Shown here: positions 28,496-55,123 of the stretch, piece by piece
Layout: every line of letters begins with the position of its first letter
Numbering within the stretch: position 1 is the stretch's first letter
Source of the DNA: an uncultured Desulfarculales bacterium
Lineage (GTDB): Bacteria > Desulfobacterota > Desulfarculia > Desulfarculales > JAHJDS01
Length of the DNA stretch: 64,000 nt
NCBI GenBank assembly: GCA_964569795.1
Contig: CAZMVB010000001.1
Coordinates: forward strand, 195,233 to 259,232
Direction of reading: 5' to 3'
Made by a program: the position numbers and the translations under genes
Notes under the pieces: generated by a model
Database searches by the model: none
What the model was told of the DNA's origin: nothing
The model's input: only the letters and a program-made list of their open reading frames with translations

Positions 28496-28499
28496 AAAA

Positions 28500-28575: not shown

Positions 28576-28721
28576 TTGTTTCGATTAAAATCAATTAAAT
28601 ACTTTTGTGAATTGCCGGGAAACGACCGGGAAAAACCGCGAAAAATCAATGCCCGCTCTCTAGCTTCACCACCTTGTCTTTCCGGTACAATTTAACCAGG
28701 CGCGTCGCATCTGCTCCAGAA

Positions 28722-28872: not shown

Positions 28873-28997
28873 CGTACGACCCGGCTTCGAGGTCCATTTT
28901 TCTTGGCCAATCAAACTCTAGTTCTTATTAAAAGTAACCACAACTGAAAATAATGGCCGATATTTTTTGTATTAGTAAAATCGTGGATGAATTTTTA

Positions 28998-29026
28998 TTG
29001 ACAACAATCAGGGCGTCGAATAAGAT
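28998..29026 (+). promoter_or_regulatory. Sigma-70-type promoter candidate for the XRE-cupin regulator/ort cluster
   Basis: TTGACA-17 nt-TAAGAT in AT-rich DNA, about 80 nt upstream of the ATG at 29108. Confidence 0.35.
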
Positions 29027-29107
29027 GGTACGCATCCTGGTCGGATACGGCCCCTTCCCCCTGTAGCGAGACATCCACGGTACGACGACGTAAGGCAATC
29101 GTTTATT

Positions 29108-29734: not shown

Positions 29735-29751
29735 ACGACCCACCCGGGGGG

Positions 29752-30093
29752 GTGGGGACGACGGGGGAGATCACGATCGTGAAGGAAGCCTGCCGGGGGG
29801 ACCTGGTCCAGATCCTGTGCGTCGTCCTGGCGCCGGCGGACCGTCCCGAAAACCTCCCGCCGTCCACCCGGGCCGTGCCCTACCAGGCCTGGATCAAGGG
29901 CCTGTTGGTGGACGACCGCGCCCGCGTCGGCGACCAGGTGACCATCGAGACCTCTATCGGCCGACGTCTTTCCGGAAGGCTCCAGGCCGTGAATCCGACC
30001 TATGACCACGGTTTCGGCCGACCCCGGCCGGAACTCCTGCCGGCGGCCGTCCTGGCTCGGCAGTGGCGCTCCGACCCCGGGAGGGAAGGTTAG
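29752..30093 (+). CDS. ortA: 2-amino-4-oxopentanoate thiolase alpha subunit (OrtA)
   Basis: About 110 aa matching my recollection of the OrtA pattern: GD.VQI..VVL.P..R....P..T..VP...W.KG.L...A.VGD.V.IET.IGRR..G.L..VNP.Y.H.FG.P.PELL. It lies immediately upstream of and overlapping an OrtB-like PLP enzyme. Confidence 0.7.
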   Translation: MGTTGEITIVKEACRGDLVQILCVVLAPADRPENLPPSTRAVPYQAWIKGLLVDDRARVGDQVTIETSIGRRLSGRLQAVNPTYDHGFGRPRPELLPAAVLARQWRSDPGREG

Positions 30094-43559: not shown

Positions 43560-44807
43560 ATGTCTTCCGTCCCTCACGAGCCTGACGCGCCCGAATCCCA
43601 GGCACCGGAGGTCGCTTTCCGGACCCTGTTCATCGTCCTGGCCATTGCCGTGGCCGTGTCCAACCTGGGGGCCGGATTCATCTCGCCCCTGCTGCCGGTG
43701 TACGCCCAGATGATGGGCGCCGGGGGCTTTCTGATCGGGCTGATATTTTCGTCCTTTTCCGTGGCCCGGGTGATCTTCATGCCCCTGGCCGGGGCCGCCT
43801 CAGACCGCTGGGGGCGCAAGACCTTCATCATGGCCGGCCTGTTCTTTTATGCCCTGTGTTCGGTCGGTTACATCTTCGCCCAGGAGGCCTGGCTCCTGGT
43901 GGGCATTCGGTTTTTCCAGGGGATGGCCTCGGCCCTGGTCTTCCCCATCGCCATGGCCGCCGTGGCCGACCTGACCCCCGTGGAAAAGGCGGGCACCGTG
44001 GTCGGGTCCTTCAACGCCCCGGTCTATATCGGCCTGGGATTTGGTCCGTTGCTGGGCGGGATCATGGCCGACTGGATCAGCATCGAGGTCAATTTCTGGG
44101 CCATGGGCGTGTTGAGCCTGTCCGCCCTGCTGGTCGTGGCGATCCTGATGCCCCGGATCGGCCGGCGCAAGAAAAAGAGCCCGGTCCGGATCAAATCGTG
44201 GGCCATGCTGGCCGACGGCACCTTTCGGGCGGTCTTTGCCCTGCGCTTTGCCCAGTCCGTGGGCCTGGGGGTGATGACCGCCTTCCTGCCGCTGTTGGGG
44301 CATATGATCGGACTGTCCATGGCCGTTCTGGGCATCGGCCTGGCGGTCAAGATCCTGACGGCGGCCCTGCTGATGCGCCCCCTGGGCAAGCTGGCCGACC
44401 GCTACAACCGGGTGATTCTGTGCGCTGTCGGGTCGTCCCTGTGCATGATGTCCTTGTTGGCGGCGACGATCATCGACGAGGTGATCGGTTTCTTCGCGGT
44501 CTGCCTGATGTGGGGCACGGCCAGCGCCCTGAGCGTGCCGGCCATGACCACCCTGGTCATCGCCCGGGGCAAGATGCTCGAGGCCGGCATGGGCCGGGCC
44601 ATGGGCCTGTTCAACCTGGCCCTGTCAGCCGGTTTCGCCACCGGGCCCATCACCCTGGGCGGCTTCTACGATCTGATGAAGCCCGACGGCGCCTTCCTGG
44701 CCGCGGCCGGGGTGCTGCTAACCGGGATCGTCGTCTTCCTGAGCCAGGTCAAGCGGCTCCAGGTGGTGGCCCGGCCGGCCCCTTCGGCGGTTTCGGGTCC
44801 GGCCTGA
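43560..44807 (+). CDS. MFS transporter
   Basis: About 12 TM segments. The MFS motif A-like segment is PLAGAASDRWGRK, between TM2 and TM3. Confidence 0.85.
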   Translation: MSSVPHEPDAPESQAPEVAFRTLFIVLAIAVAVSNLGAGFISPLLPVYAQMMGAGGFLIGLIFSSFSVARVIFMPLAGAASDRWGRKTFIMAGLFFYALCSVGYIFAQEAWLLVGIRFFQGMASALVFPIAMAAVADLTPVEKAGTVVGSFNAPVYIGLGFGPLLGGIMADWISIEVNFWAMGVLSLSALLVVAILMPRIGRRKKKSPVRIKSWAMLADGTFRAVFALRFAQSVGLGVMTAFLPLLGHMIGLSMAVLGIGLAVKILTAALLMRPLGKLADRYNRVILCAVGSSLCMMSLLAATIIDEVIGFFAVCLMWGTASALSVPAMTTLVIARGKMLEAGMGRAMGLFNLALSAGFATGPITLGGFYDLMKPDGAFLAAAGVLLTGIVVFLSQVKRLQVVARPAPSAVSGPA

Positions 44808-46290
44808 GGCCGCGGCCGGTCGGCTCCCGGTCCGGGCCCCGGGCCGAGCCGTCGCGCCGGGGATCGGCCACGCCGATGAACTCGTCCCTCTCCAGAAGGA
44901 CCAGTTGCACGCAACCCAGGTAAAAGGAATAAGGCCCGCGCCTCACCACCCTGAAGCCGCGCCGAGCAAGTTCCAGGGGCACCTCTGGTCTCATCCGCGA
45001 GGCCTCCAGGCTGACCCGCCCCTCGACCGAGCAGTGGAGCCGGGGCGCGCTGACCGCCTCCAGGGGCGGCTGGCTTGCCAGACGCAGCATCACCTGGACC
45101 ATGGCCGGGGCGATCCGGGAACTGCCCGGCGAGCCGATGACCAGCCAGGGTTTTTTGTCACGCAAGACGATGGTCGGGGCCACCTGGGACCAGGGCAGGG
45201 CCCCGGGCCGCAGGTAGTGGGGGTGGTTCTCGTCGTCGTACTCGAAGGAGCCCATGTAGTTGTTGTAAAGAAAACCCAGGTCGGGACACATCGTCCGGGC
45301 GCCGAAGGCCCGTTCCACGGACTGGGTCAGGGACACGGCGTTTCCGAAGACGTCCATGATTGACAGGTGGGTGGTGTGGCCGCCGCCCAGGGCCCGCCGG
45401 CGATCGCTGGGCAGATCGTCGCGTTCGAGCAGGGTTTGGCGGATGGTCTGGGCCAGGCGGACCGCGCCGGCCGGGTCGTCCGGGTCGCACGGGTCGTCCG
45501 TGGCATAGCCCAGCCGGTCCAGCATTCTTAAGAGGGCCTCGCCCGCCCCGGGCGGGCCGTCACTGAAGACCTCCCGGTCGCCGAACCTTCCCGTCACCGG
45601 CGCCCTTGATTCGGGCCAGGGAATCCGGGCCAGGTCAGAGGCCTGGATCAGACCACCGTGGTCGGCCATGTCCCGGCAGATCAGCCGGGCGATTTCGCCC
45701 TGGTAGAAGTCCTCGATCCCCTGCCCGGCCAGGCGTCTGAGCGTTTCGGCCAGGGCCGGCTGCCGAATGATCATCCCGGGCGCGGGGGGTAAGGCCCCGT
45801 CTTTCAGGAAGACCTCCCCGGCCGGGCCGCCCCGCAGCCGGTGACACCACTTTTTGAGTCGGGAGGCCTGGAGGGGACTTACCGGAAAACCCTCCCCGGC
45901 CAGGGCCACGGCCGGCGCGATAAGTTCGGCCAGGGGCCGGGTGCCCAGCCGCCGCCGGGCGTATTCCAGGACGGCCGGGGTGGTGGGCACGGTCGAGGCC
46001 CGGTGGCCGTTGAACCGCTTCTCGGGGTTCGGCCGATGGCCCAGGGCCCGGGCCGGAGGCCGGGAGGTGCCGTCCAGGACAAAGACCCGGTCCTGGTTGG
46101 CCTGGTAAACGGTCATCACTGTTTGCCCGCCCAGGCCCGAGGCCGACGGCTCGCAGACGCTCAGGGCAAAGGCCGCCGCCACGGCGGCGTCAATGGCGTT
46201 GCCCCCGGTGGCGAGGATGCGGGCGGCCGGGTCGGTGGCCAGGTCGCGGGCCGTGGAGACCATGCCCCAGGGCGAGGCGGCCTGCCGCAT
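44749..46290 (-). CDS. ggt: Gamma-glutamyltranspeptidase-family Ntn hydrolase, no signal peptide
   Basis: GGNAIDAAVAAAFALSVCEP, the autoprocessing/nucleophile context GGGHTTHLSIMD, and GSPGSSRI. The ATG at 46290 was preferred; the track ORF starts at a GTG at 46341, which would overlap the upstream gene. The 3' end overlaps the convergent MFS gene by 59 nt. Confidence 0.85.
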   Translation of the reverse strand: MRQAASPWGMVSTARDLATDPAARILATGGNAIDAAVAAAFALSVCEPSASGLGGQTVMTVYQANQDRVFVLDGTSRPPARALGHRPNPEKRFNGHRASTVPTTPAVLEYARRRLGTRPLAELIAPAVALAGEGFPVSPLQASRLKKWCHRLRGGPAGEVFLKDGALPPAPGMIIRQPALAETLRRLAGQGIEDFYQGEIARLICRDMADHGGLIQASDLARIPWPESRAPVTGRFGDREVFSDGPPGAGEALLRMLDRLGYATDDPCDPDDPAGAVRLAQTIRQTLLERDDLPSDRRRALGGGHTTHLSIMDVFGNAVSLTQSVERAFGARTMCPDLGFLYNNYMGSFEYDDENHPHYLRPGALPWSQVAPTIVLRDKKPWLVIGSPGSSRIAPAMVQVMLRLASQPPLEAVSAPRLHCSVEGRVSLEASRMRPEVPLELARRGFRVVRRGPYSFYLGCVQLVLLERDEFIGVADPRRDGSARGPDREPTGRGLRPDPKPPKGPAGPPPGAA

Positions 46291-46306
46291 GGGCCCGCGG
46301 CCGCAG

Positions 46307-48493
46307 TCAGGCCCCGAGGGCCGGCGGGTCGAGGCGGGCACGTTCGTCCCTCGGCTGTCCGATTAGAAAACGGGCCAACAAAAGCGTTCGCTGGACGAGG
46401 CTGATGCGCTGGACCGCCTCCCGGGGGGTGCACAGGTCCCGGGTCATCGGTCCCAGGCCGCTCAGGGCGGGCACCCCCGATGGGGCCAGCCCGGCCACCG
46501 TGGGCCAGCGCGAGGACATGGCCTTGAGGGTCACGTCCCATTCGCCGGCCGCGGCGGCCAGGGTCCGGACCAGGTTCTGGCCGCCGGGATCGGGCATCAG
46601 GGGCGGACGGTCCGAGATCAGGTTCAGGCTGGCCCCGAGTCCGTCGGGGACGAACAGGTCCCTGATCTTGGCCTCGAGGGCCAGGGCCTTGTCCAGGTCC
46701 AGGTACGAGATCGAGATGGTGGCCACGGCCCGATGGGGCGGCGACAGGGGCAGGCTGACCGTGTGCAGGTTCGAGACGAAGACCGTCACCTCCTCGGCCG
46801 GATCGGTCAGCCCCAGGGCCTCGTCGAGCCGGGCCAGCAGGCGGCGGATCAGGCGCGGTCTCTCCCGGGGAGGTCCGGTGGGCACCTCCCGGGCCGTGAC
46901 CTGGAGGCGGTACTGGCGCAGGCCCCGGGCCTGGTTGACCAGCCGATCCTCGCGGGTGGCGGGCCGCAGGACCAGGACCTGGCCGGCCTTGTCCATGGCC
47001 CGCCGGATCAGGTCCCGGCTGTACCGGCAGTCGGCCCCCTCATCGGCGTAGGCCAGCACCCCCAGGGGCCGGTGCCGCAGGAGCTGATGGTGCCGCAGGG
47101 CGGCCAGGGCGAACCGGACCATGGCCCAGGGCGCCCGGGCCTGGCCCACTCCGTCGCCGGACAGCCACTCTGGATCGCGCCGAAAGGCCTGCCACGGCAT
47201 GGCGGCGTCCATCGGGACGTCCAGGTGACCGACCAGCAGGGTCCCGCCTTCGAGGCCGGCCTCGGTTTGCCAGGTCCAGACCGTCTTCTGGTCCGACAAT
47301 TCGTTCACCGGCGTCAGTCCCAGGCCGACCAGCTTGTCGTCCAGTCGCTGCTGGGCCATCTGGATCCCGACCGGATCGTCGGTCCGGCTGGACAGGGCGC
47401 ACCACTTTTCGACCTCGCGCTCGAGCTGGTCCCGGTGGGCGGTGACGTGGTCGAACATTGCCCGGCTGACGTCCTGTTTTCGGCCGCCGATCCGGGGCGC
47501 GGCCGGCGTCCCGAAGTAGCGGGCCGCGGCCACCTCGATCAGGCGGTTCATCAGGGCGTTGTAGTCGAACCCCATGGCTGCGGCGGCAATGACGTAGGAC
47601 CCCCGGGGGCCGATGCTGGGCAGGCTGTTGATCTCCAGCAGGTACAACTCGCCCGAGGCGTCAAGACGCAGATCCACCCGCGCGCAATCATAGCAGCCCA
47701 GGGCCTTGAAGGCCCGCAGGGCGATGTCCCTGGCCTGGGCGGCCGTCTCCTCGGAAAGGGACGCCGGACAGACGACCCGGTTGGTCCGGCCGGACAGCCC
47801 CCTCTTGTCCTCGTAGGTATAGATGGGCGGACCGCTTTTACCGAAGATGATCTCGGCCGGCCGGAAGGTCTCGGGCGGATTGTTGCCCAGGACCCCGACG
47901 TTGATCTCCCGGCCGGCGATGAACCGCTCGACCAGGGCCGGCTGCTGAAAGGTCTCGAAGATGACGTCGGTCGCGGCCCGCAACTCGGCCTCGGTCTCGA
48001 CGATCTTGACCCCGAAGGAGACGGCCTCGTTCTTGGGCTTGGCGATCAGGGGATACTCCAGCTCCGGCGGGGGAAAGTCGGGTCCGTCCAGGACCACGAA
48101 GTCCGGGGTGGGCAGCCCGGCCTGCTTGAACAGGACCTTGGCCACGACCTTGTCCAGGGCCAGGGAGTGGGCCAGCGGCCCGGAGCCGACGTAGGGGATG
48201 CCGACCATTTCCAGGATGGACGGGACGTGGGTGTACCGGGCCTGGCCCTGGATGCCGTAGGACAGGTTGAACACCAGACCCGGCCGCTCGCCCTTGACCA
48301 CCCGGGGCATGAACTCCTCGAGCCGGTCGATCAGGTCCTTGTCCCCCTCGAAGGCGGCCACCTGGTGGCCGCCGGCCTTGAGGGCCTTGACAATGCCCCG
48401 GATCGTGTCCTCGGCGTACTTCTCCCGGTTGGGGATGCCGAAGAGGTTGATGACGTTCTGGCTTTCCCAGTTGTAAACGACCGCGATCTTCAC
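46307..48493 (-). CDS. Fusion protein: Ddl-like ATP-grasp ligase (N) + M20-family peptidase-like domain (C)
   Basis: The N-terminal ~330 aa read MKIAVVYN...LDKVVAKVLFKQAGLPTP...YPLIAKPKNEAVSFGV...ARVDLRLDASGELYLLEINSLP (ATP-grasp). The C-terminal ~390 aa read LLVGHLDVPMD...LAYADEGADC (M20-like HxD and DE motifs). GTG start. Confidence 0.8.
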   Translation of the reverse strand: MKIAVVYNWESQNVINLFGIPNREKYAEDTIRGIVKALKAGGHQVAAFEGDKDLIDRLEEFMPRVVKGERPGLVFNLSYGIQGQARYTHVPSILEMVGIPYVGSGPLAHSLALDKVVAKVLFKQAGLPTPDFVVLDGPDFPPPELEYPLIAKPKNEAVSFGVKIVETEAELRAATDVIFETFQQPALVERFIAGREINVGVLGNNPPETFRPAEIIFGKSGPPIYTYEDKRGLSGRTNRVVCPASLSEETAAQARDIALRAFKALGCYDCARVDLRLDASGELYLLEINSLPSIGPRGSYVIAAAAMGFDYNALMNRLIEVAAARYFGTPAAPRIGGRKQDVSRAMFDHVTAHRDQLEREVEKWCALSSRTDDPVGIQMAQQRLDDKLVGLGLTPVNELSDQKTVWTWQTEAGLEGGTLLVGHLDVPMDAAMPWQAFRRDPEWLSGDGVGQARAPWAMVRFALAALRHHQLLRHRPLGVLAYADEGADCRYSRDLIRRAMDKAGQVLVLRPATREDRLVNQARGLRQYRLQVTAREVPTGPPRERPRLIRRLLARLDEALGLTDPAEEVTVFVSNLHTVSLPLSPPHRAVATISISYLDLDKALALEAKIRDLFVPDGLGASLNLISDRPPLMPDPGGQNLVRTLAAAAGEWDVTLKAMSSRWPTVAGLAPSGVPALSGLGPMTRDLCTPREAVQRISLVQRTLLLARFLIGQPRDERARLDPPALGA

Positions 48494-48517
48494 CGTAATA
48501 CCTTTCGGCCAACGCCT

Positions 48518-49642
48518 TCAGCCGACAAAGGTGGAGGTCAGTCTAGCCAGGCCGATTTGATACACCGGCCGGGTGTAGTCATCCAGCCAGTAGGCCCCGG
48601 GGTTGCTCGGAAAGATCAGGAACCGCCCCCGGTCCTGGCGGCCGGGGGCCCGGTGGAACCGCATGAACACCTGGCCCTCGGCCAGGCCGACGATCTCGAT
48701 CTTTCCCCGGGCATGGGACATGACGAACCGGGCCCGCTTGGCCAGGCCCGAACACCGGGCCCGGGCCCCCTCGACGATCAAATAGGCCTCCTCCACGGGC
48801 ACGGCGTAGGTCCGGTTGCCCACCGTGGGACGGCACTGGAACACGTAGTAGGGGGCCACCCCGAGGAAGGACAGCTCGCTCCACAACCGGGCCAGGTCCT
48901 CCGGATCGTCGTTGACCCCCCGGATCAGCGGGGTCTGCTGACAGATGGCCGCCCCGGTCCGCTGGAGCAGCCCGACGGCCTCCCGTGCCGGCCGGCTCAG
49001 CTCCCGCCAGTGGTTGAACTGGATCATGAAGTACAGCCGCCTGTCTCCCCGGGAAAAACGCGCGGCCAACCCGAGCAGGGCCGGGTCGTCCAGGATCCGC
49101 CACGGATTGAAGGCCGGCATCTTGGTCCCCAGCCGGACGATTTTCACGTGATCGATGGCCATCAACTCGCCGAGGATCGACTCCAGGGCCGGCGTCGAGC
49201 GCATCAAGGCGTCTCCGCCGGTCAGCAGGACGTTGTTGACCTCGTCATGGGCGCGGATGTAGGTGATGCCCTGGCTGACGTCCTTCGAGACCTCCTCGGA
49301 TCGCTCGAAGAACAGGCGCTTGCGGAAGCAGAAGCGGCATCGGCCGCCGCACAGATCGCTGACCAGCAGGACGGCCGTGGACGGGTATTTGTGCTGGAGG
49401 CCCGGCAGGATGGTGTAACTGGCCTCCGCGGAGGGGTCGGTCTGCCCCCAGGGTTCCAGTTCGGCCGCGTCCGGGATGATGATCCGGCGAATGGGGTCGG
49501 CCGGGTCGTCCCAGTCGATCAGGGACAGATAGTAGTCGTTGGCCCCGAATTCGAATTCCCGGGCCACCGGCTCGAGAGTTTTTCGTACAGTGGCCCGCAG
49601 ACCGAGGACCTGGTCCAGCGCGGACACGTATTTCGGTGTCAT
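48518..49642 (-). CDS. Divergent KamA-family radical SAM/PLP aminomutase-like protein (substrate unknown)
   Basis: CGGRCRFC (CxxxCxxC), GGDALM and VNDD are present. It reads YYVFQCRPTVG and FVMSHARGK where lysine 2,3-aminomutases have QCD and DAPGGGGK. The ATG at 49642 lies 7-8 nt after AGGAG. Confidence 0.8.
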   Translation of the reverse strand: MTPKYVSALDQVLGLRATVRKTLEPVAREFEFGANDYYLSLIDWDDPADPIRRIIIPDAAELEPWGQTDPSAEASYTILPGLQHKYPSTAVLLVSDLCGGRCRFCFRKRLFFERSEEVSKDVSQGITYIRAHDEVNNVLLTGGDALMRSTPALESILGELMAIDHVKIVRLGTKMPAFNPWRILDDPALLGLAARFSRGDRRLYFMIQFNHWRELSRPAREAVGLLQRTGAAICQQTPLIRGVNDDPEDLARLWSELSFLGVAPYYVFQCRPTVGNRTYAVPVEEAYLIVEGARARCSGLAKRARFVMSHARGKIEIVGLAEGQVFMRFHRAPGRQDRGRFLIFPSNPGAYWLDDYTRPVYQIGLARLTSTFVG

Positions 49643-49728
49643 CGGTTTGCTCCTGAACAAAAAGAGCCTGAGATCGCTCTTGGTTGTCTTCCTGGGTCAG
49701 GTCTTGATTCACGCCGGGTGACCTCCTG

Positions 49729-50316
49729 TTAGTGTAAAAAGGGGATCCGGAAGAAGAGGAACCAGCCGTTGACCAGCAGCAGGCATCCCCCGCCGGCCAT
49801 GGCCATGGCCATGATGAAGAACCGACCCGAGGCGGCGATCATGGCGATGGAGGCCAGGATGATGGCGATCTGGAGGAAGACCTGGCTGTAGTCGAGATAG
49901 GGGTCCCGGTCCTGTCCCAGGGCCAGCAGTCTTTCCTGGGCCCGGGCGTCCTTCATGATCTTGGCCTTCTCGGCCTTGAAGCGCCCCACCTCGGCCTTCA
50001 TCCGGGCCACGCGGTCCACCAGGCGCCTTTTGGCCTCGGGGGTCATGGTCCCCCCGCGCTCGACCAGGCTCAGTTCCATCAGGCCGGTCAGCGAGGCGTA
50101 AAGGTGCTGGCGGATGGTCTTGGCCTGGTAGTAGGCCCACTGGTTCGAGGCCCTCTGCTGGGCCAGCATGATTTCCTTGGTGTTGTTGCCGCCGACCAGG
50201 GCGGCGATGGACAGCAGCACGGCAAAGACAGCCGTGGTCAGACCGACCCGCTTGGTGAACGGGCTGACGCCCTTGTCCGCGTGCCTGTCCGGTTCGGGCA
50301 GTTCCATATCGACCAT
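49729..50316 (-). CDS. DUF4337-like membrane protein
   Basis: It has a TM segment (GLTTAVFAVLLSIAALVGG), a coiled region (NQWAYYQAKTIRQ...) and a C-terminal TM pair. This matches my recollection of the DUF4337 architecture. Confidence 0.65.
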   Translation of the reverse strand: MVDMELPEPDRHADKGVSPFTKRVGLTTAVFAVLLSIAALVGGNNTKEIMLAQQRASNQWAYYQAKTIRQHLYASLTGLMELSLVERGGTMTPEAKRRLVDRVARMKAEVGRFKAEKAKIMKDARAQERLLALGQDRDPYLDYSQVFLQIAIILASIAMIAASGRFFIMAMAMAGGGCLLLVNGWFLFFRIPFLH

Positions 50317-50372
50317 GTCTCGTGTCGCTCCGAATCATCTCCGCCCGGAAACTCGTCCCGGCCGGCTGCGGT

Positions 50373-50918
50373 TCAGTTCAGGCGGCCGACCCGTTCTGAC
50401 CGCTCGGCCGCGGCTTTTCTCCGGGAAACGCCCACCACCTTGACGAAGATGACCTTGTCGTCCTCGGGGGCGTAAAAGTCCTCGAGGCGGGCCGTCTCGA
50501 CGTATCCCCGCCCCTCGTAGAAACCCCGGGTCGGCGCGTACTTGGGGCCGGACGAGGTATCGACGTAGATCCGGCGCCCTCCGGCCTTGATCACCCGCCG
50601 CTCGACCTCGGCCAGCAGCAGGCGACCGATGCCCTGGCCCCTCAGGTTCCGCCAGACCACGATCCAGTACAGGTCCCAACTGCTGGCCGTGGCGGGAATG
50701 GGACCGTAACAGGCGTAACCCAAGGGGGAGTCGTCCAGTTCGGCGAACAGGAAATGGTAACCGCTGTCCAGCCCCTTGGCCAGGCGCTCCTCGACCAGTT
50801 GGCCGGCGATCTCGACCTCTTCCCGGTGGAAAAAGCCGGAGCCGGCACACATCCGCCGCACCAGGTCCGGGTCGGTCGCCTTGACCCGGTCGCGCCAGGT
50901 TAGTTTGGAACGCCGCAC
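50373..50918 (-). CDS. GNAT-family N-acetyltransferase
   Basis: The acetyl-CoA motif A is WRNLRGQGIGRLLLAEVERR. The GTG at 50918 lies 14 nt after the upstream stop. The longer track ORF (to 51284) overlaps the upstream gene out of frame. Confidence 0.75.
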   Translation of the reverse strand: MRRSKLTWRDRVKATDPDLVRRMCAGSGFFHREEVEIAGQLVEERLAKGLDSGYHFLFAELDDSPLGYACYGPIPATASSWDLYWIVVWRNLRGQGIGRLLLAEVERRVIKAGGRRIYVDTSSGPKYAPTRGFYEGRGYVETARLEDFYAPEDDKVIFVKVVGVSRRKAAAERSERVGRLN

Positions 50919-50932
50919 CCCAGCCCCCTGAC

Positions 50933-52021
50933 TCAGGCCGTGACCGACCGCTCGTCCGGCCGCGGCCCGGTCCCGAGGGCCGCCGGTAACGGCCAGGCTT
51001 CGGTCCGGCCCCGGCGGCCGGGACCGGGCCGGTTGGCGTCGGCCATGATCCGGGACAGCACCTGGGCCGGGGACAGGCCGGCCCGCTGGGCGGCGGCCAT
51101 GAAGCCGGCCTCGGCCTCGAGACAGGGATTGGCGTTGGCCTCGAGGATAAAGGGGCGGCCGTCCGTATCCACCCGGAAGTCGATCCGGGCCCAGCCCCGA
51201 AAACCGAAGCAGCGCCAGGCCGCCAGGCTCAAGTCGGTCAGGGTCTGAAGCAGGGCCCGGTCGCCCTCGGGAAAATCGAAGCAACGTCGGGTGTGCCGGT
51301 ACTCAAAGGAATTTTCAACCCACTTGGCCCGGTAACCGACCACCCGGGGCCGGTCGGGACCATAGCCCTCGAACTCGATCTCGGCCGGGGGCAGCGCCTC
51401 GGGGCCGGTCTCGGTGGCCAGAAGGGACAGGTTGAATTCCCGGCCGGGGACAAACGCCTCGGCAAAGTAACGGACGCCCGTGACGTGAAAGAGGTCCTGG
51501 AGCCGCTCCCGGATTTGATCCGGGTCGTCGCCCGGGACCACCGAGTCGTCGTCCAGGCCCCTGGAGCCGTGCTCCCAGACCGACTTGATGATGTATTGGG
51601 AGGCCGGGGGTTCCGGCGAGATGAAACAGCGGTCGTCGAGCCACCCCGGGGTGGGCAGGCCGGCCCGGCAAAGGGCCGCCTTGGCCGCCAGCTTGTCCGA
51701 GGACAGGGCCATGGCCCGTCCGTCGGCCCCGGTGAAGGCCAGACCCAGGGTGGCCAGCAACTCGGGCGGCCGGTGGATCAGGCGTTCCTCTCCCCAGGGG
51801 GCCTCGACCAGATTGAAGACCAGGTCCGGGGCGGAGTTGATCAGCCGGCTCAGCGCGGCGGTCGATCCGGACCAGGCCGCCCGTTCCACCCGATGCCCCA
51901 GGTCCGCCAGGAGGCGGGACACCTGGTCGGCCTGGACCAGGTTGTCCTGCCGGTCCGGATCCAGGGTCACCCCGGGCGGGTCGTGGAGGACCACGATCTT
52001 CATGGTCGCCGTCTCCGTCAT
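50933..52021 (-). CDS. Ddl-like ATP-grasp ligase 2
   Basis: MKIVVLHD..., SSDKLAAKAALCRAGLPTP, YIIKSVWEHGSRGL, and WARIDFRVDTDGRPFILEANANP. The ATG at 52021 overlaps the upstream stop (ATGA). Confidence 0.8.
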   Translation of the reverse strand: MTETATMKIVVLHDPPGVTLDPDRQDNLVQADQVSRLLADLGHRVERAAWSGSTAALSRLINSAPDLVFNLVEAPWGEERLIHRPPELLATLGLAFTGADGRAMALSSDKLAAKAALCRAGLPTPGWLDDRCFISPEPPASQYIIKSVWEHGSRGLDDDSVVPGDDPDQIRERLQDLFHVTGVRYFAEAFVPGREFNLSLLATETGPEALPPAEIEFEGYGPDRPRVVGYRAKWVENSFEYRHTRRCFDFPEGDRALLQTLTDLSLAAWRCFGFRGWARIDFRVDTDGRPFILEANANPCLEAEAGFMAAAQRAGLSPAQVLSRIMADANRPGPGRRGRTEAWPLPAALGTGPRPDERSVTA

Positions 52022-53052
52022 GAGGACCCCAGGGCCGCCCGAAAGGGGCCTGTCCCCGTCCGCGGCCAGGTCCGGTCGAGCCCGGCGCGCTTGCGGGCGG
52101 AGCGGACGATCCGGTCGATCAGCTCGGAAAAAGATATCCCGGCCAGACCGCACAGGATCGGCAGGTCCGAGTGATGGGGGTGCAGGCCGGCCAGGGGGTT
52201 GATCTCCAGGAAGTGGGGCCGGCCCGATTTGTCCAGGCGGATATCAACCCGGCCGGCGTCCCGGCAGCCGAGGCCGCGGTAAACCGCCAGGGCCAGGGCG
52301 GCGATGTCCCGGCCCTCGGCCCGGCCGGCCAGCCGGTAGCTGACCCGGTGCTCGCTCTCTTCCTTGTTGACGAACGAGTACACCCCCGGTTCGGCCCCCG
52401 GCCCCAGGAGGACCTCCATCACCCCCACCACCTCGGCCCGGGCCCCGGTGCCGACGATCCCGACGGTGAACTCCCGGCCCGGCAGAAAGGTCTCGACCAG
52501 GACCGGCTGGCGATAGGCGGCCAGCAGGTCGCGGCAGGCCCGCACCAGGGCGGCCCGGTCCATCAGGCGCGAGCCCGGGCCGATGCCCTTGCCCGTGCCC
52601 TCGGCCACGGGCTTGGCGAACAGGGGGAAGGGCAGATCGATCTCGGGGGCCTCCTCGATGGAGCTGACCACCGCGAAATCGGGCGTGGGCAGACCCAGGT
52701 CCCGGACCACCCGCTTGGCCATGCCCTTGTGCAGGGTCAGGGTCAGCACCAGCGGATCGGAAAAGGTGTAAGGCAGACCAAAAGCCTCGAGCAGGCAGGG
52801 CACCTGGGCCTCCCGCCCGTAGCCGGACACGCCCTCGGCGATGTTGAACACCAGGTCCCAGCGCCGGCCCTCGGCCAGACGCTCCACCAGGCGCGGCAGG
52901 CGGCCGATCCGCTCGGGCTGATGGCCCAGGCCGGCCAGGGTCTCCTCCAGGGCGGCGACGGTCTCCTCAGAGTCGAATTCAGCCACCTCTTCGGGGCCGA
53001 AGCCGGCCGCCCGGTAGTCATCCCGCAGGTCATAGGTCAGGCCGATGTGCAT
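52018..53052 (-). CDS. Ddl-like ATP-grasp ligase 1
   Basis: TLHKGMAKRVVRDLGLPTP, FPLFAKPVAEGTGKGI, and AGRVDIRLDKSGRPHFLEINPLAGL. Confidence 0.8.
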   Translation of the reverse strand: MHIGLTYDLRDDYRAAGFGPEEVAEFDSEETVAALEETLAGLGHQPERIGRLPRLVERLAEGRRWDLVFNIAEGVSGYGREAQVPCLLEAFGLPYTFSDPLVLTLTLHKGMAKRVVRDLGLPTPDFAVVSSIEEAPEIDLPFPLFAKPVAEGTGKGIGPGSRLMDRAALVRACRDLLAAYRQPVLVETFLPGREFTVGIVGTGARAEVVGVMEVLLGPGAEPGVYSFVNKEESEHRVSYRLAGRAEGRDIAALALAVYRGLGCRDAGRVDIRLDKSGRPHFLEINPLAGLHPHHSDLPILCGLAGISFSELIDRIVRSARKRAGLDRTWPRTGTGPFRAALGSS

Positions 53053-53065
53053 CTGACACCTCGGA

Positions 53066-54406
53066 TCATGAGCACCCGGCGCCGGTGTCCGGGTAGAGGT
53101 AGAGATCGTCCCGGAAGTTGCGGAGGATCAGGTTGCCTCCGTCCCGGCCGGCCACCGCCTCGGGACAGAGGGCCACCTTGCCGCCCCCGCCCGGGGCGTC
53201 GATGACATAGGTCGGCACGGCGTAGCCGCTGATGTGGCCCCGCAGGCCCTGGATGATCTCGAGCCCCTTGGCCACCGCGGTCCGGAAGTGGGCCGAGCCG
53301 GAGATGGGGTCGCACTGGTACAGGTAGTAGGGTCGGACCCGCATCCGGAGCAACCCCCGCATCAACTCGGCCATGGTAGCCACGTCGTCGTTCACCCCGG
53401 CCAGGAGCACCGTCTGGCTGCCCAGGGGGATGCCGGCGTTGGCCAGACGGGCGCAGGCCGCCGCCGCCTCGGGGGTCAGTTCCAGGGGATGGGTGAAGTG
53501 GAGGCTCATGAACAGGGGGTGGTAGCGCTTGAGCATCCGGACCAGACCGGTGGTGATCCGCTGGGGCAGCACGGCCGGGACCTTGGTCCCCAGGCGGATG
53601 ATCTCGACGTGCTTGATTTGGCGGAGACGGGCCAGGATCCACTCCAGGTTGCGGTTGCTCAGGGTGAGCGGATCGCCGCCCGAGACGACCACGTCACGGA
53701 TCTGCGGCGTGGCCTCGATGTAGGCCAGGGCCGCCTCGAGGCGGCGCCGGCCGCTGTGCCCCCCGCCGTGCCCGCCCACCAGGCGCGAGCGGGTGCAGTA
53801 GCGGCAGTAGGTCGAACAGAACCGGGTGACCAGCAGCAGGACCCGGTCCGGATAGCGATGGACCAGCCCCGGGGCGACCTCGTCCGCCGACTCGCCCAGG
53901 GGGTCGTCGGCCTCGCCCGGGCCGACCACGGACTCGGCAGTAACCGGCACGACGCACCGCCGGATGGGGTGCCCCGGGTCGTCGGGGTCGATCAGACTGA
54001 GGTAGTAAGGCGTGACCGCCATGGGCAGCCTCCGCTCCCCCCCGGAAAAGGCCTGGGCCTCCTCCGGGGTCAGCCGAATCATCGGATCGAGTCGTCCCGG
54101 ACCGGTCACCCGATGGCGGAGCTGCCACCGCCAGTCGTTCCAGTCGGCCCGGGTGCTGTCCGGGAAAAACCGCTGGTAAAAGGCCTTGGCCCGCTGGTTG
54201 ACGATGATGCCGTTGGTCTGCTTGACGGCTTCGAGTCTGGCCCTCGATCGGACGGGATCATCGTCCGTCTCCAGGGGAACGGCCAGGGTCAGCGCCCCTC
54301 GGGAGGGAGGTTTGTCTTCCTCGGTCGAGGATTCCCCTCTGTCCCCCAGGGGCGCGGCGCCGGCCGCCGCCTCGCTTCGGGCCGCCAAGCGGTCTTTCCG
54401 GGTCAT
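53066..54406 (-). CDS. kamA: Lysine 2,3-aminomutase (radical SAM/PLP)
   Basis: CSTYCRYCTR radical-SAM cluster, SGGDPL, GVNDD, YYLYQCDPISGSAHFR and YVIDAPGGGGK (both lysine-epsilon-binding Asp positions and the PLP Lys context). The ATG at 54406 lies 5-6 nt after GGAGG. Confidence 0.9.
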   Translation of the reverse strand: MTRKDRLAARSEAAAGAAPLGDRGESSTEEDKPPSRGALTLAVPLETDDDPVRSRARLEAVKQTNGIIVNQRAKAFYQRFFPDSTRADWNDWRWQLRHRVTGPGRLDPMIRLTPEEAQAFSGGERRLPMAVTPYYLSLIDPDDPGHPIRRCVVPVTAESVVGPGEADDPLGESADEVAPGLVHRYPDRVLLLVTRFCSTYCRYCTRSRLVGGHGGGHSGRRRLEAALAYIEATPQIRDVVVSGGDPLTLSNRNLEWILARLRQIKHVEIIRLGTKVPAVLPQRITTGLVRMLKRYHPLFMSLHFTHPLELTPEAAAACARLANAGIPLGSQTVLLAGVNDDVATMAELMRGLLRMRVRPYYLYQCDPISGSAHFRTAVAKGLEIIQGLRGHISGYAVPTYVIDAPGGGGKVALCPEAVAGRDGGNLILRNFRDDLYLYPDTGAGCS

Positions 54407-54459
54407 TTTCACCTCCAAACTCAAGTTGGGTTCATTCCTGCCCTCCGGGCGGCCGGTCC

Positions 54460-54726
54460 TCAATCCAGGAGCCGGTAGCCTTCCACCCGGATCAATCCCT
54501 CACCCCGGGCCGAACGCCTCCGCCGGCCCGTGACCATCACCTCGCGCCCGACCAGGTGGTCGATCCCTTTGGCCGAACCGGACGTCTCGACCCGGTACTC
54601 CTGTTCGTCAAAGGTGGACAGGACCACGCCAATCACCCGCCCGTCCCGATCCCACTCCACGGGGATGATCAGGCCGCGGATCTCGATCCGCTCGCCACCG
54701 TCGGACTCGGTTCGGGTCACGTCCAC
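54460..54726 (-). CDS. Small (88 aa) hypothetical protein, first gene of the sigma-54 operon
   Basis: An open frame with a GTG start about 70 nt downstream of the predicted sigma-54 start site. It is beta-rich and charged and ends ...RVEGYRLLD. I recognise no family. Confidence 0.45.
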   Translation of the reverse strand: MDVTRTESDGGERIEIRGLIIPVEWDRDGRVIGVVLSTFDEQEYRVETSGSAKGIDHLVGREVMVTGRRRRSARGEGLIRVEGYRLLD

Positions 54727-54804: not shown

Positions 54805-54820
54805 GGCAACGGCCGTGCCA
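54805..54820 (-). promoter_or_regulatory. Sigma-54 (-24/-12) promoter
   Basis: The minus strand reads TGGCACGGCCGTTGCC, which matches TGGCACG-N4-TTGCW at every position except the last. It lies about 80 nt upstream of the first ORF and downstream of an EBP gene and palindromic sites. Confidence 0.75.
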
Positions 54821-54873
54821 TATTTTTAATTTATTGTTTTAATTGAATAAATTTAAAGCAAGCGGCCAGTTCA

Positions 54874-54888
54874 GGAACTACGAGTTCC
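54874..54888. promoter_or_regulatory. Palindromic upstream activator site A (GGAAC-N5-GTTCC)
   Basis: GGAACTACGAGTTCC followed by GAT, about 55-70 nt upstream of the -24 element. Confidence 0.55.
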
Positions 54889-54977
54889 GATATCAGATCG
54901 AAAAGGCAGACAGGGCCGGGCCATGGCGGGAGTCTTTTTGGACAACTTATTGAATTTACATTAACTTATTAAATTTG

Positions 54978-54992
54978 CGAACCGGAAGTTCC
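54978..54992. promoter_or_regulatory. Palindromic upstream activator site B
   Basis: CGAACCGGAAGTTCC followed by GAT, preceded by the AT-rich module TTACATTAACTTATTAAATTTG. Confidence 0.55.
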
Positions 54993-55007
54993 GATTAAAC
55001 GCGACTC

Positions 55008-55022
55008 AGAACTCAGAGTTCC
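55008..55022. promoter_or_regulatory. Palindromic upstream activator site C
   Basis: AGAACTCAGAGTTCC followed by GGT. Confidence 0.5.
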
Positions 55023-55062
55023 GGTTTGACAGCCATGGATTGACATTAATTTATTAAATATA

Positions 55063-55077
55063 CGAATGAGAAGTTCC
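55063..55077. promoter_or_regulatory. Palindromic upstream activator site D
   Basis: CGAATGAGAAGTTCC followed by GAT, preceded by the AT-rich module TTGACATTAATTTATTAAATATA, which is nearly identical to the module before site B. Confidence 0.5.
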
Positions 55078-55123
55078 GATCAATGACGATTCAGAAGGCG
55101 GGTTTCGATTTAATAACCATTGG

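Follow-up and report, generated by a model that had tools for sequence, protein, structure and literature searches.

We analysed a window of 64,000 nucleotides from an uncultured Desulfarculales bacterium. On its minus strand, nine co-directional genes (g1 to g9, 54726→44749) lie downstream of a sigma-54-type control region (Table 1). An ORF check together with Pfam and NCBIfam scans bore out the nine reading frames and the domain content given to them in the original prediction, which had been made from the letters alone. The genes overlap or are spaced by 13–86 nt. The claimed ATGA overlap of g3 and g4 is present in the sequence, although another possible g4 ATG, 18 nt further on, is preceded by a better Shine-Dalgarno sequence and fits the N-terminus of the family. 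A consensus scan found no sigma-70-like promoter inside the operon and only weak internal hairpins. The flanks code for Liv ABC, MFS and AlaDH proteins, and the MFS gene, convergent with g9, is also kept in the related locus L084. The locus had been placed on a putative island, but GC and GC3 are uniform and there is neither an integrase gene nor an adjacent tRNA gene.

Table 1. Features of the operon and its control region (window coordinates).
Feature	Position	Strand	Description
NtrC-type sigma-54 EBP	55124..56572	-	Sigma54_activat 227 bits, AAA_lid_14, Response_reg 28 bits (Pfam)
Four CGGAAC-N5-GTTC(C) palindromes	54873-54889, 54979-54993, 55007-55023, 55064-55078	.	within 54873..55078; predicted UAS
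Sigma-54 -24/-12 element TGGCACGGCCGTTGC	54806..54820	-	exact TGGCAC-N5-TTGC
g1	54460-54726	-	88 aa, DUF5818-like; Pfam DUF5818 23.5 bits, cutoff 27
g2, KamA1	53066-54406	-	CSTYCRYC, QCD, DAPGGGGK motifs; radical SAM/PLP
g3, Ddl1	52018-53052	-	ATP-grasp; Dala_Dala_lig_C 83.9 bits
g4, Ddl2	50933-52024	-	ATP-grasp; Dala_Dala_lig_C 50.5 bits; alternative start 52003
g5	50373-50918	-	small GNAT; Acetyltransf_1 46.6 bits
g6	49729-50316	-	DUF4337 membrane protein, 137 bits
Hairpin + T-run, g6-g7 gap	49662-49681	-	weak; 6 pairs, 3 GC (consensus scan)
g7, KamA2	48518-49642	-	divergent KamA-family radical SAM/PLP; 2A5H E=7e-49
g8	46307-48493	-	Dala_Dala_lig_C 137.5 bits + M20-like domain (Peptidase_M20 19 bits, cutoff 24.6)
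g9	44749-46341	-	G_glu_transpept 336 bits; without signal peptide

The original prediction treated the nine genes as one co-conserved system. The co-occurrence census did not agree: complete nine-gene synteny was found in only one relative, L084 (89% identical), and beyond it two cassettes were almost always apart. Cassette A consists of KamA, two ATP-grasp ligases and the GNAT, and was colinear in 35/80 metagenome loci. It is very widespread (at least 597 metagenome matches) and strongly colinear in bacteria of anaerobic sediment and sludge. The cassette stands alone, without g6–g9, in Desulfoferula and an Omnitrophica MAG, and none of the 80 cassette-A metagenome loci had g6–g9 or FGase within 10 kb. 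A gene for an HDAC-type deacetylase was present in about 20 cassette-A loci (about a quarter), and a g1-like protein and a sigma-54 activator were occasional additions. Cassette B consists of the ligase::CPG2-like fusion, the cytoplasmic GGT and usually FGase, and about 70 of the 80 genomes, drawn from many phyla, had it. The g9 homologue followed the g8 homologue in 68/83 loci; g8, g9 and FGase were adjacent and co-directional in 55–68 loci from many phyla, with CorA, MgtE and MscS as recurring neighbours. The window itself has no FGase, the usual last member. About 70/80 cassette-B loci were without any cassette-A gene, and most cassette-B loci had no KamA within 10 kb. Linkage of A and B was limited to three lineages (window/L084, L064 and partly L043); a shared product is therefore not required. 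The DUF4337 gene g6, confined among 170 loci to the window, L001 and L084, is a lineage-specific insertion between the cassettes, and the hairpin at this junction is a possible attenuator. The locus is thus a real operon under a dedicated sigma-54 switch, yet one that joins two separately conserved cassettes in one lineage.

The activator encoded next to the operon has a weak receiver domain, an AAA+ sigma-54 interaction domain and HTH_8, and GAFTGA is visible in its translation. A palindrome scan of the window gave three exact matches and one with one mismatch, all inside one 206-bp stretch; CGGAACTCTTGGTTCCG lies at the equivalent position in L084. The four palindromes are predicted to be EBP binding sites. 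The promoter element TGGCACGGCCGTTGC was the sole match at ≤1 mismatch in the 64 kb. About three matches are expected by chance at one mismatch, and therefore its position, ~80 nt upstream of g1, counts. The element is conserved upstream of the orthologous cassette in L084 (identical), in Desulfoferula mesophila (L087), where TGGCACGGCGTTTGCT lies 73 nt upstream of a g1-like gene, and in L043 as TGGCACGGTAGTTGCT. An EBP homologue lies ahead of cassette A in L084, L087, L123, L128, L132, L134 and L043. These findings uphold both the near-consensus -24/-12 promoter and the dedicated EBP control claimed earlier.

Using an HMM from six g1 homologues, we found a g1-like protein in 15 further loci. 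Where an EBP is present, the g1-like gene always lies between it and the first enzyme gene; among cassette-A metagenome loci, g1-like proteins occur in about 9/80 and follow the EBP, not the enzymes. g1 is the promoter-proximal gene of the EBP-controlled cassette versions. The C-termini of g1-like proteins are unrelated (GYRLLD, DSFT, IGLV, EILS), and in a single fusion case, in Desulfoferula, a PG_binding_1 domain is fused to the g1-like domain, with a hydrophobic segment between the two.

Comparison of KamA1 with PDB 2A5H (E=1e-129) showed that C125/C129/C132, R134, D293, D330 and K337 are all present. On NCBIfam it exceeded the KamA family cutoff (336.6 > 199.2) and fell below that of the AblA equivalog (442.7 < 525.4). 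Judged by the retained lysine-binding Asp293 and Asp330, KamA1 is a lysine-type 2,3-aminomutase, as had been claimed. In KamA2, Arg and Ser replace these two residues and are near-invariant across its family, and the CxxxCxxC motif, R134 and the PLP lysine are retained. KamA2 scored under all NCBIfam cutoffs, that of the KamA family (182 < 199) included, and its score with the model for glutamate 2,3-aminomutase was only 201 bits (cutoff 650). The replacements fit the earlier claim of a second aminomutase of different specificity. Cassette B is adjoined by four independent KamA kinds. The KamA2 type occurs in the window and L084, just upstream of GGT in L085 and of g8–g9 in L004; an Eam-like kind with Lys at the Asp293 site occurs in L053 and L062 (564 and 602 bits with the model for glutamate 2,3-aminomutase vs 428–444 with that for AblA); a 605-aa kind, again with Lys at this site, occurs in L038 and L076; and L064 has cassette A's own KamA. 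Lys at the Asp293 site in other cassette-B KamAs suggests an acidic substrate. KamA2, with Arg and Ser at the two sites, is predicted to be an aminomutase for an acidic amino acid.

The three ligases share the Ddl/Van fold, and K97, K144, E180, K215, R255, D257, E270 and N272 are invariant in g3 (59 homologues), g4 and g8; the catalytic core of g4 is invariant in 73 homologues. However, true Ddl identity was rejected for all three: the NCBIfam Ddl cutoffs, every one of them in the case of g3, were missed by a wide margin, and each family departs in its own way from the E15/S150/Y216 triad and L282. The substitutions are H63 to E, S150 to T, Y216 to E and L282 to D in g3, Y216 to W and S150 to A in g4, and T/K at 216 with R/Q/K at position 15 in g8, where the alignment to DdlB is uncertain. 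By these residues, g3 appears to be an ATP-grasp amide ligase with an acidic substrate pocket (E63, E216 and D282 gained), and g3, g4 and g8 look like three catalytically intact amide ligases. Together with the GNAT, they argue for the ribosome-independent amide-bond chemistry of the original prediction. On NCBIfam, g5 gave only sub-threshold rimI-like matches and did not match the AblB model; g4 homologues fused to a GNAT (Ddl2::GNAT) were seen in P0276 and P0301.

The g8 profile matched Ddl (1e-41) and CPG2 (3e-13) in PDB, and g8 homologues are ~55% identical across phyla. Its C-terminal domain is homologous to CPG2, a glutamate-releasing enzyme, but four of the five zinc ligands are lost: relative to CPG2, D141 is Q (variable), E176 is G (invariant), E200 is R and H385 is C or Y, and H112 and E175 remain. 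The M20 domain is thus unlikely to be the amidohydrolase-type enzyme that had been proposed. g9 resembles GGT, CapD and cephalosporin acylase in its Ntn-hydrolase fold, in the autoprocessing nucleophile T323 (Thr in all 66 clade members) and in the kept E419. It differs from GGT in the acids that bind the donor alpha-ammonium group, E438 being Y in 66/66 members and D441 being A or S; G482 is S, and the NCBIfam GGT score is below the cutoff (280 < 358). The N-termini of the clade are hydrophilic, in agreement with the cytoplasmic GGT claimed before. g9 thus belongs to the GGT family of Ntn hydrolases, is cytoplasmic, and lacks the alpha-amino-binding acids in its altered donor pocket.

We found no pathway matching the gene set in the literature searched; both cassettes are so far undescribed, and the statement that the set fits none of the described systems stands. 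Cassette A resembles AblA/AblB in a GNAT that neighbours a lysine 2,3-aminomutase with D293/D330 and in what would be a beta-amino-acid product unused in proteins. It differs in the AblA equivalog score of KamA1 (443 < 525), in a g5 without an AblB-model match, in the two ATP-grasp ligases between aminomutase and GNAT, in the HDAC-type deacetylase of ~25% of cassette-A loci and in sigma-54/EBP control. NAGGN is an osmolyte dipeptide made without ribosomes by a trio of the Ngg GNAT::ATP-grasp protein, AsnO and an M42 peptidase. The pairing of GNAT and ATP-grasp, the peptidase-family domain alongside and the Ddl2::GNAT fusions are reminiscent of it, but the operon lacks an amidotransferase and a trio-model match, the fusion has the reversed domain order, and aminomutases are present, hence beta-amino-acid building blocks. 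As with PylB/PylC, a radical SAM lysine rearrangement would be followed by ATP-grasp amide coupling of the product; PylB, however, lies outside the KamA family, and PylD is absent here. Ruzicka and Frey are said to have described in 2007 a glutamate 2,3-aminomutase of the KamA family in which a basic residue replaces Asp293, the residue that binds the lysine epsilon-ammonium. A basic residue at this site (Arg in KamA2, Lys in the L053/L062 KamAs) is shared with Eam (TIGR04368), whereas KamA2 has Ser, not Asn, at the D330 site, MSHxxGK instead of DAPGGGGK, and belongs to a separate broad family (~60% identity) that includes Methanomicrobiales and Nitrospinota. The ATP-grasp + M20 pairing in g8 recalls LysX/LysK, but the ligases are Ddl-type, not RimK-type, and nothing like the LysW carrier, with its conserved acidic C-terminus, is present. 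In Pbo, the KamA-like gene adjoins the ATP-grasp ligase gene (pboF/pboG; PMC8473136), but the cluster is an NRPS-containing island of Pseudomonas (P. syringae). The abl operon of methanogens is induced by salt (PMC1224877).

Given these data, we tentatively favour a reading that could well hold: cassettes A (beta-lysine) and B (probably beta-glutamate), expressed from one sigma-54 promoter, would produce and turn over small compounds in which beta-amino acids are amide-linked. The EBP, bound to the four palindromes, would fire the promoter, and one minus-strand transcript probably spans both cassettes. KamA1 would convert L-lysine to beta-lysine, g3 and g4 would each form one amide bond, with the Ddl fold but without Ddl specificity, and g5 would cap an amine. 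The cassette-A product may be an N-acetylated di-/tripeptide or short oligomer containing beta-lysine, and the HDAC-type amidohydrolase of related loci would render the acetylation reversible. At the site that binds the lysine epsilon-ammonium in lysine 2,3-aminomutase, KamA2 carries a cationic residue; it would isomerise an acidic amino acid, in the simplest case turning L-glutamate into beta-glutamate. The g8 ligase would then link a partner to this product or to glutamate, and the CPG2-like domain is probably a module for glutamate/ligand binding or for oligomerisation. With its nucleophile kept and no pocket for a free alpha-ammonium, g9 may cleave a non-canonical glutamyl amide, helped elsewhere by FGase. 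The operon probably serves to accumulate cytoplasmic solutes derived from beta-amino acids and to turn them over in a regulated way; the pointers to an osmolyte role are habitat impressions and neighbouring genes.

It is unlikely that all nine enzymes form one assembly line for a single N-acetylated hetero-oligopeptide of beta-lysine and a second beta-amino acid, trimmed or turned over by the GGT and the M20 domain. The close gene spacing, the single promoter, the synteny in L084 and the cassette-A genes beside cassette B in L064 and L043 would suit it. Nevertheless, 0/80 cassette-A loci have g6–g9 or FGase within 10 kb, ~70/80 cassette-B loci are devoid of cassette-A genes, L084 at 89% identity is not independent evidence, and the M20 domain has no metal site. 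We regard as decidedly unlikely a tagging system in which the ligases and the GNAT attach beta-lysine or glutamate to g1 or another target, as RimK/RimI, tubulin-tyrosine ligase-like enzymes or LysW/LysX do, and the GGT and M20-like domain act as eraser and reader. The LysW/RimK-type carrier of the original prediction did not hold, with g1-like genes in a minority of cassette-A loci (~9/80, linked to the EBP rather than the enzymes), g1-like C-termini not conserved, Ddl-type ligases without a RimK or LysX Pfam match, and a small partner gene usually missing from cassette B. What speaks for tagging is the conserved small protein at the operon head, RimI as the best, sub-threshold GNAT match, faint precomputed TTL (PF03133) matches on g8 homologues, and a catalytically dead M20 domain that could serve as a recognition module. 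Of the earlier interpretation overall, the aminomutases, ligases, GNAT and EBP were supported, and the nine-gene co-conservation, M20 amidohydrolase, carrier and island were not.

Nitrogen-regulated catabolism or salvage, with import and breakdown of lysine, glutamate, gamma-glutamyl or N-acyl peptides and with ATP-dependent ligation as activation or protection, as in gamma-glutamylation pathways, also seems distinctly improbable. The kamDE, kdd, kce, kal and oxidoreductase genes are absent from the operon, three ATP-using ligases and an acetyltransferase fit degradation poorly, and the transporter genes lie outside both conserved cassettes. Yet lysine fermentation begins with KamA, the NtrC-type EBP with sigma-54, the nearby Liv-type ABC transporter, MFS and alanine dehydrogenase genes and the hydrolase families GGT, FGase and M20 are compatible with catabolism, and a true M20 peptidase adjoins g8 in L043 and L053. 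Very improbable is a bioactive secondary metabolite, a cationic beta-lysine peptide from cassette A, for which streptothricin with its beta-lysine chains or the KamA-like/ATP-grasp pair of Pbo would be the parallel, with GNAT and HDAC for self-protection and activation and the MFS protein as exporter. Streptothricin acetyltransferases are GNATs that act on the beta-lysine amine, a GNAT + HDAC pair is present, and the MFS gene convergent on g9 is kept in L084, which speaks for it, and the Pbo cluster pairs a KamA-like gene with an ATP-grasp L-amino-acid ligase (PMC8473136). But cassette A is very widespread and highly colinear, a pattern seen more typically in primary or stress metabolism, it contains no tailoring enzymes or resistance target, and the MFS gene is not kept with it elsewhere. 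Least credible is cell-envelope modification, in which a peptidoglycan precursor would receive beta-lysine, or a peptide of it, from the Ddl-like ligases: these have other residues at the Ddl specificity positions, neither cassette has Mur, flippase or transpeptidase genes, and the Desulfoferula fusion to PG_binding_1, which with the Ddl fold would favour it, is one case. Some ATP-grasp ligases do attach side-chain residues to precursors of peptidoglycan, for example the D-aspartate ligase of E. faecium.

Besides its low score on the glutamate 2,3-aminomutase model and its Ser at the D330 site, two further points weigh against the prediction for KamA2. For beta-glutamate in methanogens, NMR evidence speaks against an aminomutase route (Roberts 2005). 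The KamA2 homologues of Methanoculleus and Nitrospinota lie in unrelated, housekeeping-like gene neighbourhoods and may have another substrate.

The nine open reading frames, g1 to g9, all lie on the minus strand from position 54726 down to 44749, and adjacent frames overlap or are separated by 13-86 nt. Pfam and NCBIfam scans recovered every domain that the original prediction had named for them.

Positions and assignments of the operon genes and of other elements in the window
Feature	Position	Strand	Assignment	Basis
g1		minus	small protein	weak DUF5818 match
g2 (KamA1)		minus	KamA-family radical SAM protein with LAM_C domain	Pfam/NCBIfam
g3, g4 (Ddl1, Ddl2)		minus	two Dala_Dala_lig_C ATP-grasp proteins	Pfam/NCBIfam
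g5		minus	GNAT	Pfam/NCBIfam
g6		minus	DUF4337 membrane protein	Pfam/NCBIfam
g7 (KamA2)		minus	second KamA-family protein, far more divergent	Pfam/NCBIfam
g8		minus	728-aa ATP-grasp protein with weak M20 match	Pfam/NCBIfam
g9		minus	GGT	Pfam/NCBIfam
Activator	55124-56572		NtrC-type activator, directly upstream of g1-g9	
g6-g7 gap	49643-49728	minus	short ORF opening with GTG at 49712	
Hairpin in g6-g7 gap	49681-49662		weak hairpin and T-run	
tRNA pair	28421-28575		tRNA-Gly(GCC)/tRNA-Cys(GCA)	Rfam
Lower-GC stretch	28001-30000		GC 0.59, against about 0.66 for the window	

The element TGGCAC-N5-TTGC has a single match in the 64-kb window, about 80 nt ahead of g1. With one mismatch allowed, about three chance matches are expected in the window, and the sequence alone is not decisive. 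The same element also precedes the orthologous genes in L084 (a relative of 89% identity), in L087 (Desulfoferula mesophila, about 54% protein identity) and in a third locus, L043. The three exact copies of the palindrome CGGAAC-N5-GTTC in the window, and one copy with a single mismatch, cluster 55-260 bp upstream of the element. A consensus scan found no sigma-70-like promoter inside the operon, where the hairpins are only weak. Conservation of the element, the palindrome cluster and the lack of an internal sigma-70-like promoter together make the sigma-54 promoter convincing. GG-N10-GC stands at the correct distance, the sigma-54 enhancer-binding protein (EBP) encoded upstream has the GAFTGA motif, and putative EBP sites lie upstream, so that the predicted sigma-54-driven operon is well supported at the sequence level.

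The suggestion that the operon sits on a genomic island was abandoned. GC and third-position GC are uniform, the nearest tRNA genes are 16 kb away, and the flanks encode a Liv-type ABC transporter and MFS, alanine dehydrogenase, PAP2, VWA, CBS and SSF proteins, with no integrase. The tRNA pair lies within the lower-GC stretch and is unrelated to the operon; these tRNAs are the only Rfam matches in the window, where Rfam detected no riboswitch or leader. The g6-g7 gap contains a short ORF (MNQDLTQEDNQER...) that starts with GTG behind a strong Shine-Dalgarno sequence (AGGAGG) and may encode a leader peptide. The equivalent ORF in L084 (9933-9992) has 19 codons (MNEVLTQEDNQERFNPLFV, then a stop) and ends just ahead of the KamA2 ribosome-binding site. 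In the window, CAG replaces this stop codon and the ORF therefore continues out of frame across g7.

A g8 profile search with one genome per species returned 356 relatives, and all window proteins were mapped onto the best 80 of these 356 loci. Among these 80, g9 came directly after g8 on the same strand in 68, and unbiased clustering of neighbouring ORFs revealed a third conserved gene directly after g9 in 55, encoding a protein of the N-formylglutamate-amidohydrolase family (FGase, PF05013). FGase was not found in the window. The hosts of this unit, cassette B, include Planctomycetota, Desulfobacterota, Chromatiaceae, Nitrospinota, Zixibacteria, Verrucomicrobiota and Acidobacteriota, among others, and g8 is about 55% identical throughout these loci across phyla. 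Nearly all of the 80 loci lacked g1-g7. The converse search, with a g4 profile against metagenome contigs, gave at least 597 matches. In 35 of the best 80 of these, the order KamA-Ddl-Ddl-GNAT (cassette A, g2-g5) was complete on one strand, and most of the remainder were cut by contig ends; none of the 80 had g6, g7, g8, g9 or FGase within 10 kb. Cassette A also occurs on its own as a four-gene unit in an Omnitrophica MAG and in the complete D. mesophila genome, where a sigma-54 activator again precedes it.

The predicted single system of nine genes thus resolves into two separately conserved cassettes, all nine genes being kept only in L084, and the picture of three ligases and two aminomutases acting together dissolves into two modules, as which the genes are better studied. 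The DUF4337 gene, g6, is lineage-specific and lies at the cassette junction. Three arrangements join parts of both cassettes: the lineage of the window and L084; L064, in which KamA-GNAT-Ddl-Ddl is convergent with g8-g9-FGase; and L043, with the order EBP, g1-like gene, Ddl1, Ddl2, true M20 peptidase, PEP carboxylase, g8, g9 and FGase. Given only three such arrangements, a functional relationship between the cassettes is plausible but not obligatory.

KamA1 aligned with the lysine 2,3-aminomutase structure of Clostridium subterminale (2A5H, E=1e-129). On this alignment g2 keeps the cysteines of the CxxxCxxC radical SAM cluster motif (C125, C129 and C132), the carboxylate-binding R134 and the PLP lysine K337, and it has the motifs QCD and IDAPGGGGK. 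Asp293 and Asp330, which we take from the published structure to bind the epsilon-ammonium group of lysine, are kept in g2 and in its L064 orthologue. The score of g2 was 336.6 for the KamA family (TIGR00238, cutoff 199.2) and 442.7 for the AblA equivalog (cutoff 525.4). Despite missing the AblA cutoff, KamA1 is, judged by these residues, a lysine-type enzyme, in agreement with the original assignment as a lysine 2,3-aminomutase.

Proteins resembling g1 share the motif G-x-x-I-P-V-x-W-D...T-x-D-E-x-E-Y. Among the best 80 of the at least 597 cassette-A metagenome loci, about 9 encode such a protein; L084, L087 and L089 do so too, as do four loci of cassette B (L008, L032, L042 and L043). Where there is an activator gene, the g1-like gene always lies between it and the first enzyme gene. 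The C-termini of these proteins are unrelated to one another. The g1-like protein appears to behave as part of a regulatory front end rather than as a LysW-type carrier. The LysW/LysX carrier, which had been put forward as an alternative, was rejected on the basis of the unrelated C-termini, with no conserved acidic one, and of the presence of g1-like proteins in a minority of loci; a RimK Pfam match was also lacking. In D. mesophila (AP028679; L087 4947-5591), the g1-like domain is combined with a hydrophobic segment, an Ala/Pro/Lys-rich linker and PG_binding_1, a fusion that hints at a possible envelope role for the small protein in some lineages.

The ATP-grasp core (K97, K144, E180, K215, R255, D257, E270 and N272) is invariant in 59 homologues of g3, 73 of g4 and 100 of g8. 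Numbering follows E. coli DdlB, whose sequence agreed at the 14 numbered residues checked. The Ddl triad E15/S150/Y216 is replaced by E/T/E in g3, D/A/W in g4 and R(Q,K)/V/T(K) in g8, and the best NCBIfam Ddl scores were 138, 91 and 172, respectively, against a cutoff of 243. The three proteins therefore keep the Ddl catalytic core but fall outside Ddl by triad and curated cutoffs. In g3, Glu at 63 and 216 and Asp at 282 are all largely or fully invariant, giving an acidic pocket that would accommodate a diamino compound, for instance beta-lysine. In g4, an invariant Trp occupies position 216.

Rosetta-stone fusions of Ddl2 with GNAT exist among the homologues, and g5 had no match to the AblB model at E<=0.01 in NCBIfam. 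About 20 of the best 80 of the at least 597 cassette-A loci carry an HDAC-family amidohydrolase of about 580 aa, mostly between Ddl2 and GNAT. The pairing of an acetyltransferase with a deacetylase of the acetyl-lysine/acetyl-polyamine type points to reversible acetylation of a side-chain amine. The HDAC protein, which the window lacks, begins with about 270 aa that match no Pfam family, and the histone-deacetylase-family domain follows (e.g. L091, about 11004-12809). About 10 of the same 80 loci have a Cys-rich small protein between KamA and Ddl1 (about 170-190 aa, CxxC...CC motifs, no Pfam match), for example L149 (8427-9011), L089 (6464-6973) and some eight others.

KamA2 retains the cluster motif together with Arg134 and the PLP lysine; its Asp293 and Asp330 sites are occupied by Arg and Ser, respectively. 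The latter two residues are nearly invariant in a large family of about 60% identity, with members in Methanoculleus, Methanofollis, ANME-2, Nitrospinota and Latescibacteria. KamA2 scored below every NCBIfam cutoff, that of the KamA family included, and reached 200.9 bits on the glutamate 2,3-aminomutase model (TIGR04368, cutoff 650). In the glutamate enzyme described by Ruzicka and Frey in 2007, a basic residue reportedly occupies the Asp293 site and Asn the Asp330 site (K332/N369); g7 has Arg at the former, but Ser rather than Asn at the latter. A KamA2-clade gene lies directly ahead of g8-g9(-FGase) in L004 and directly ahead of the g9 orthologue, with no g8, in L085. KamAs of other lineages have come to adjoin cassette B independently. 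In L053 and L062, the KamA adjoining g8 has Lys at the Asp293 site and scored 564-602 bits on the glutamate 2,3-aminomutase model versus 428-444 on AblA, and the 605-aa KamA adjoining cassette B in L038 and L076 has Lys there too. Apart from cassette A's own, all KamAs beside cassette B thus carry a basic residue at the position of Asp in the lysine enzyme, and we infer from this that the KamA2 substrate is acidic, most simply glutamate converted to beta-glutamate. Most of the best 80 of the 356 cassette-B loci have no KamA nearby, and the contexts of KamA2 homologues in Methanoculleus and Nitrospinota are unrelated and uninformative. As a further caveat, NMR work summarised in a review (PMC1224877) speaks against an aminomutase as the source of beta-glutamate in methanogens. 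A 62%-identical KamA2 paralogue (P0130; L172) comes from a sequencing run in which the window sequence also occurs (Logan SRR14802574), and a second copy of the family is therefore carried by this organism or by a neighbour of it. An exact look-up of g3 gave no match, and apart from this run the window sequence was seen only in one NCBI contig.

In its N-terminal half, g8 is predicted to be a competent Ddl-fold ligase, with Arg/Gln/Lys at DdlB position 15, where the N-terminal alignment is uncertain, and Thr/Lys at 216. The C-terminal domain, originally taken for an M20 amidohydrolase, scored 19 bits on Pfam M20 (cutoff 24.6) and matched 1CG2 by profile over about 300 residues (E=3e-13). Carboxypeptidase G2 (CPG2) releases glutamate from N-acyl-glutamates. 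Its zinc ligands are H112, D141, E176, E200 and H385, in a numbering that was checked against the alignment letters. g8 keeps only H112 of these five, plus the catalytic E175, and has a variable Q for D141, an invariant G for E176, R for E200 and C/Y for H385. Thus, the M20 homology and fold stand, but four of five zinc ligands are lost. The domain is highly conserved despite this loss, and we read it as a putative ligand-binding or oligomerisation module rather than a di-zinc peptidase. A Foldseek search with the g8 model (pLDDT 69.5) matched Ddl structures only and did not inform on the C-terminal domain.

For g9, the predicted cytoplasmic GGT was borne out by a Pfam GGT match of 336 bits and the absence of a signal peptide. 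The nucleophile T323 aligns with the first residue of the small subunits in PDB structures, and this Thr is invariant in 66 members of the g9 clade. The acidic residues that hold the donor alpha-ammonium in Bacillus GGT are replaced in the clade (E438 by Tyr in 66/66, D441 by Ala or Ser), as is G482 by Ser, and the TIGR00066 score was 280 against a cutoff of 358. By its pocket, its location and this score, g9 falls outside canonical gamma-glutamyltranspeptidases. Since the donor-pocket acids are replaced and the Thr is kept, g9 looks like an active amidase for something other than an ordinary gamma-glutamyl compound.

Neither cassette could be assigned to AblAB, Eam, Ddl, canonical GGT, M20 peptidases, LysW/LysX or the NAGGN trio, and each resembles parts of these. 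In the AblA/AblB operon, AblB is next to AblA without further enzymes, whereas here two ligases intervene and g5 has no AblB-model match. [quoted passage not shown] In the searchable literature, the only precedent found for a KamA-like gene beside an ATP-grasp ligase gene is the Pseudomonas syringae Pbo cluster, which has an uncharacterised product (PMC8473136). A full-text literature search found no description of either cassette. In keeping with the original claim of an undescribed system, both look undescribed within that literature; they are variants of ATP-grasp/aminomutase small-amide biosynthesis and not a categorically new mechanism.

We propose a single transcript that is turned on by the activator together with sigma-54. 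Cassette A would make beta-lysine and then, through two ATP-dependent amide bonds and N-acetylation, a small capped peptide. Cassette B would make an acidic beta-amino acid and couple it through g8, and g9 would hydrolyse the g8-type amide or a related one. This proposal starts from the observed enzyme families, active-site states, cassette structure and promoter. Its conjectural parts are the products, the trigger, co-transcription and all substrates except lysine, and we hold the mechanism as a whole tentatively, at slightly under an even chance. A single line of nine enzymes, which the unbroken run of genes in the window and L084 would fit, is unlikely given the separate conservation of the cassettes. 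Protein tagging is quite improbable, with the g1-like proteins resembling a front end more than a carrier. Catabolism regulated by nitrogen, here through the NtrC-type activator, is likewise quite doubtful beside a gene set with three ligases. The beta-lysine predicted from KamA1 could instead enter a bioactive peptide, which we consider very unlikely, and modification of the envelope, at which the D. mesophila fusion hints, is less likely still.

A further reading, also quite unlikely, is that the two cassettes jointly build a beta-peptide independently of ribosomes and NRPS. This would be an acetyl-capped oligo- or polyamide of beta-lysine and beta-glutamate, serving as a cyanophycin-like cytoplasmic nitrogen store or a polyionic osmoprotectant, with the GGT-like protein, FGase and HDAC as dedicated depolymerases. 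If true, the KamA2 family would be a second, convergent glutamate 2,3-aminomutase and could explain beta-glutamate in Methanomicrobiales. Lysine fermentation was a separate candidate and was rejected, since kamDE, kdd and kce are all missing. In L085 alone, a BKACE gene lies 5 kb from KamA2.

Returning to the proposed pair of small-amide modules, both are well conserved and occur in abundance, A with at least 597 metagenome matches and B with 356 species-level genomes; they can be tested directly, and the searchable literature has no product on record. Solving them would add beta-amino-acid metabolites to the stress and nitrogen physiology of bacteria, mainly those of anaerobic sediments, and would establish what a large KamA subfamily, also found in methanogens, acts on, which bears on the origin of beta-glutamate. 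It would also make sense of a cytoplasmic GGT clade whose donor pocket has been rebuilt and give three new specificities for Ddl-fold ligases.

Among the best 80 of the 356 cassette-B loci, CorA, MgtE and MscS-type channels recur as neighbours in 5-7 loci each, and an EctB-like aminotransferase occurs once. Record titles give the impression that many cassette-B genomes come from marine or saline sediments. In L043, the true M20 peptidase and the PEP carboxylase, which is of archaeal type (PEPcase_2), lie between Ddl1-Ddl2 and g8-g9-FGase (4688-7760), in one co-directional run behind the sigma-54 activator. L053 likewise combines a true M20 (11366-12646) with its Eam-like KamA. A DHH/DHHA1 phosphoesterase lies beside KamA2 or g8 in three loci of different lineages (L004 2387-3586, L062 4814-5836 and L085 7305-8309).
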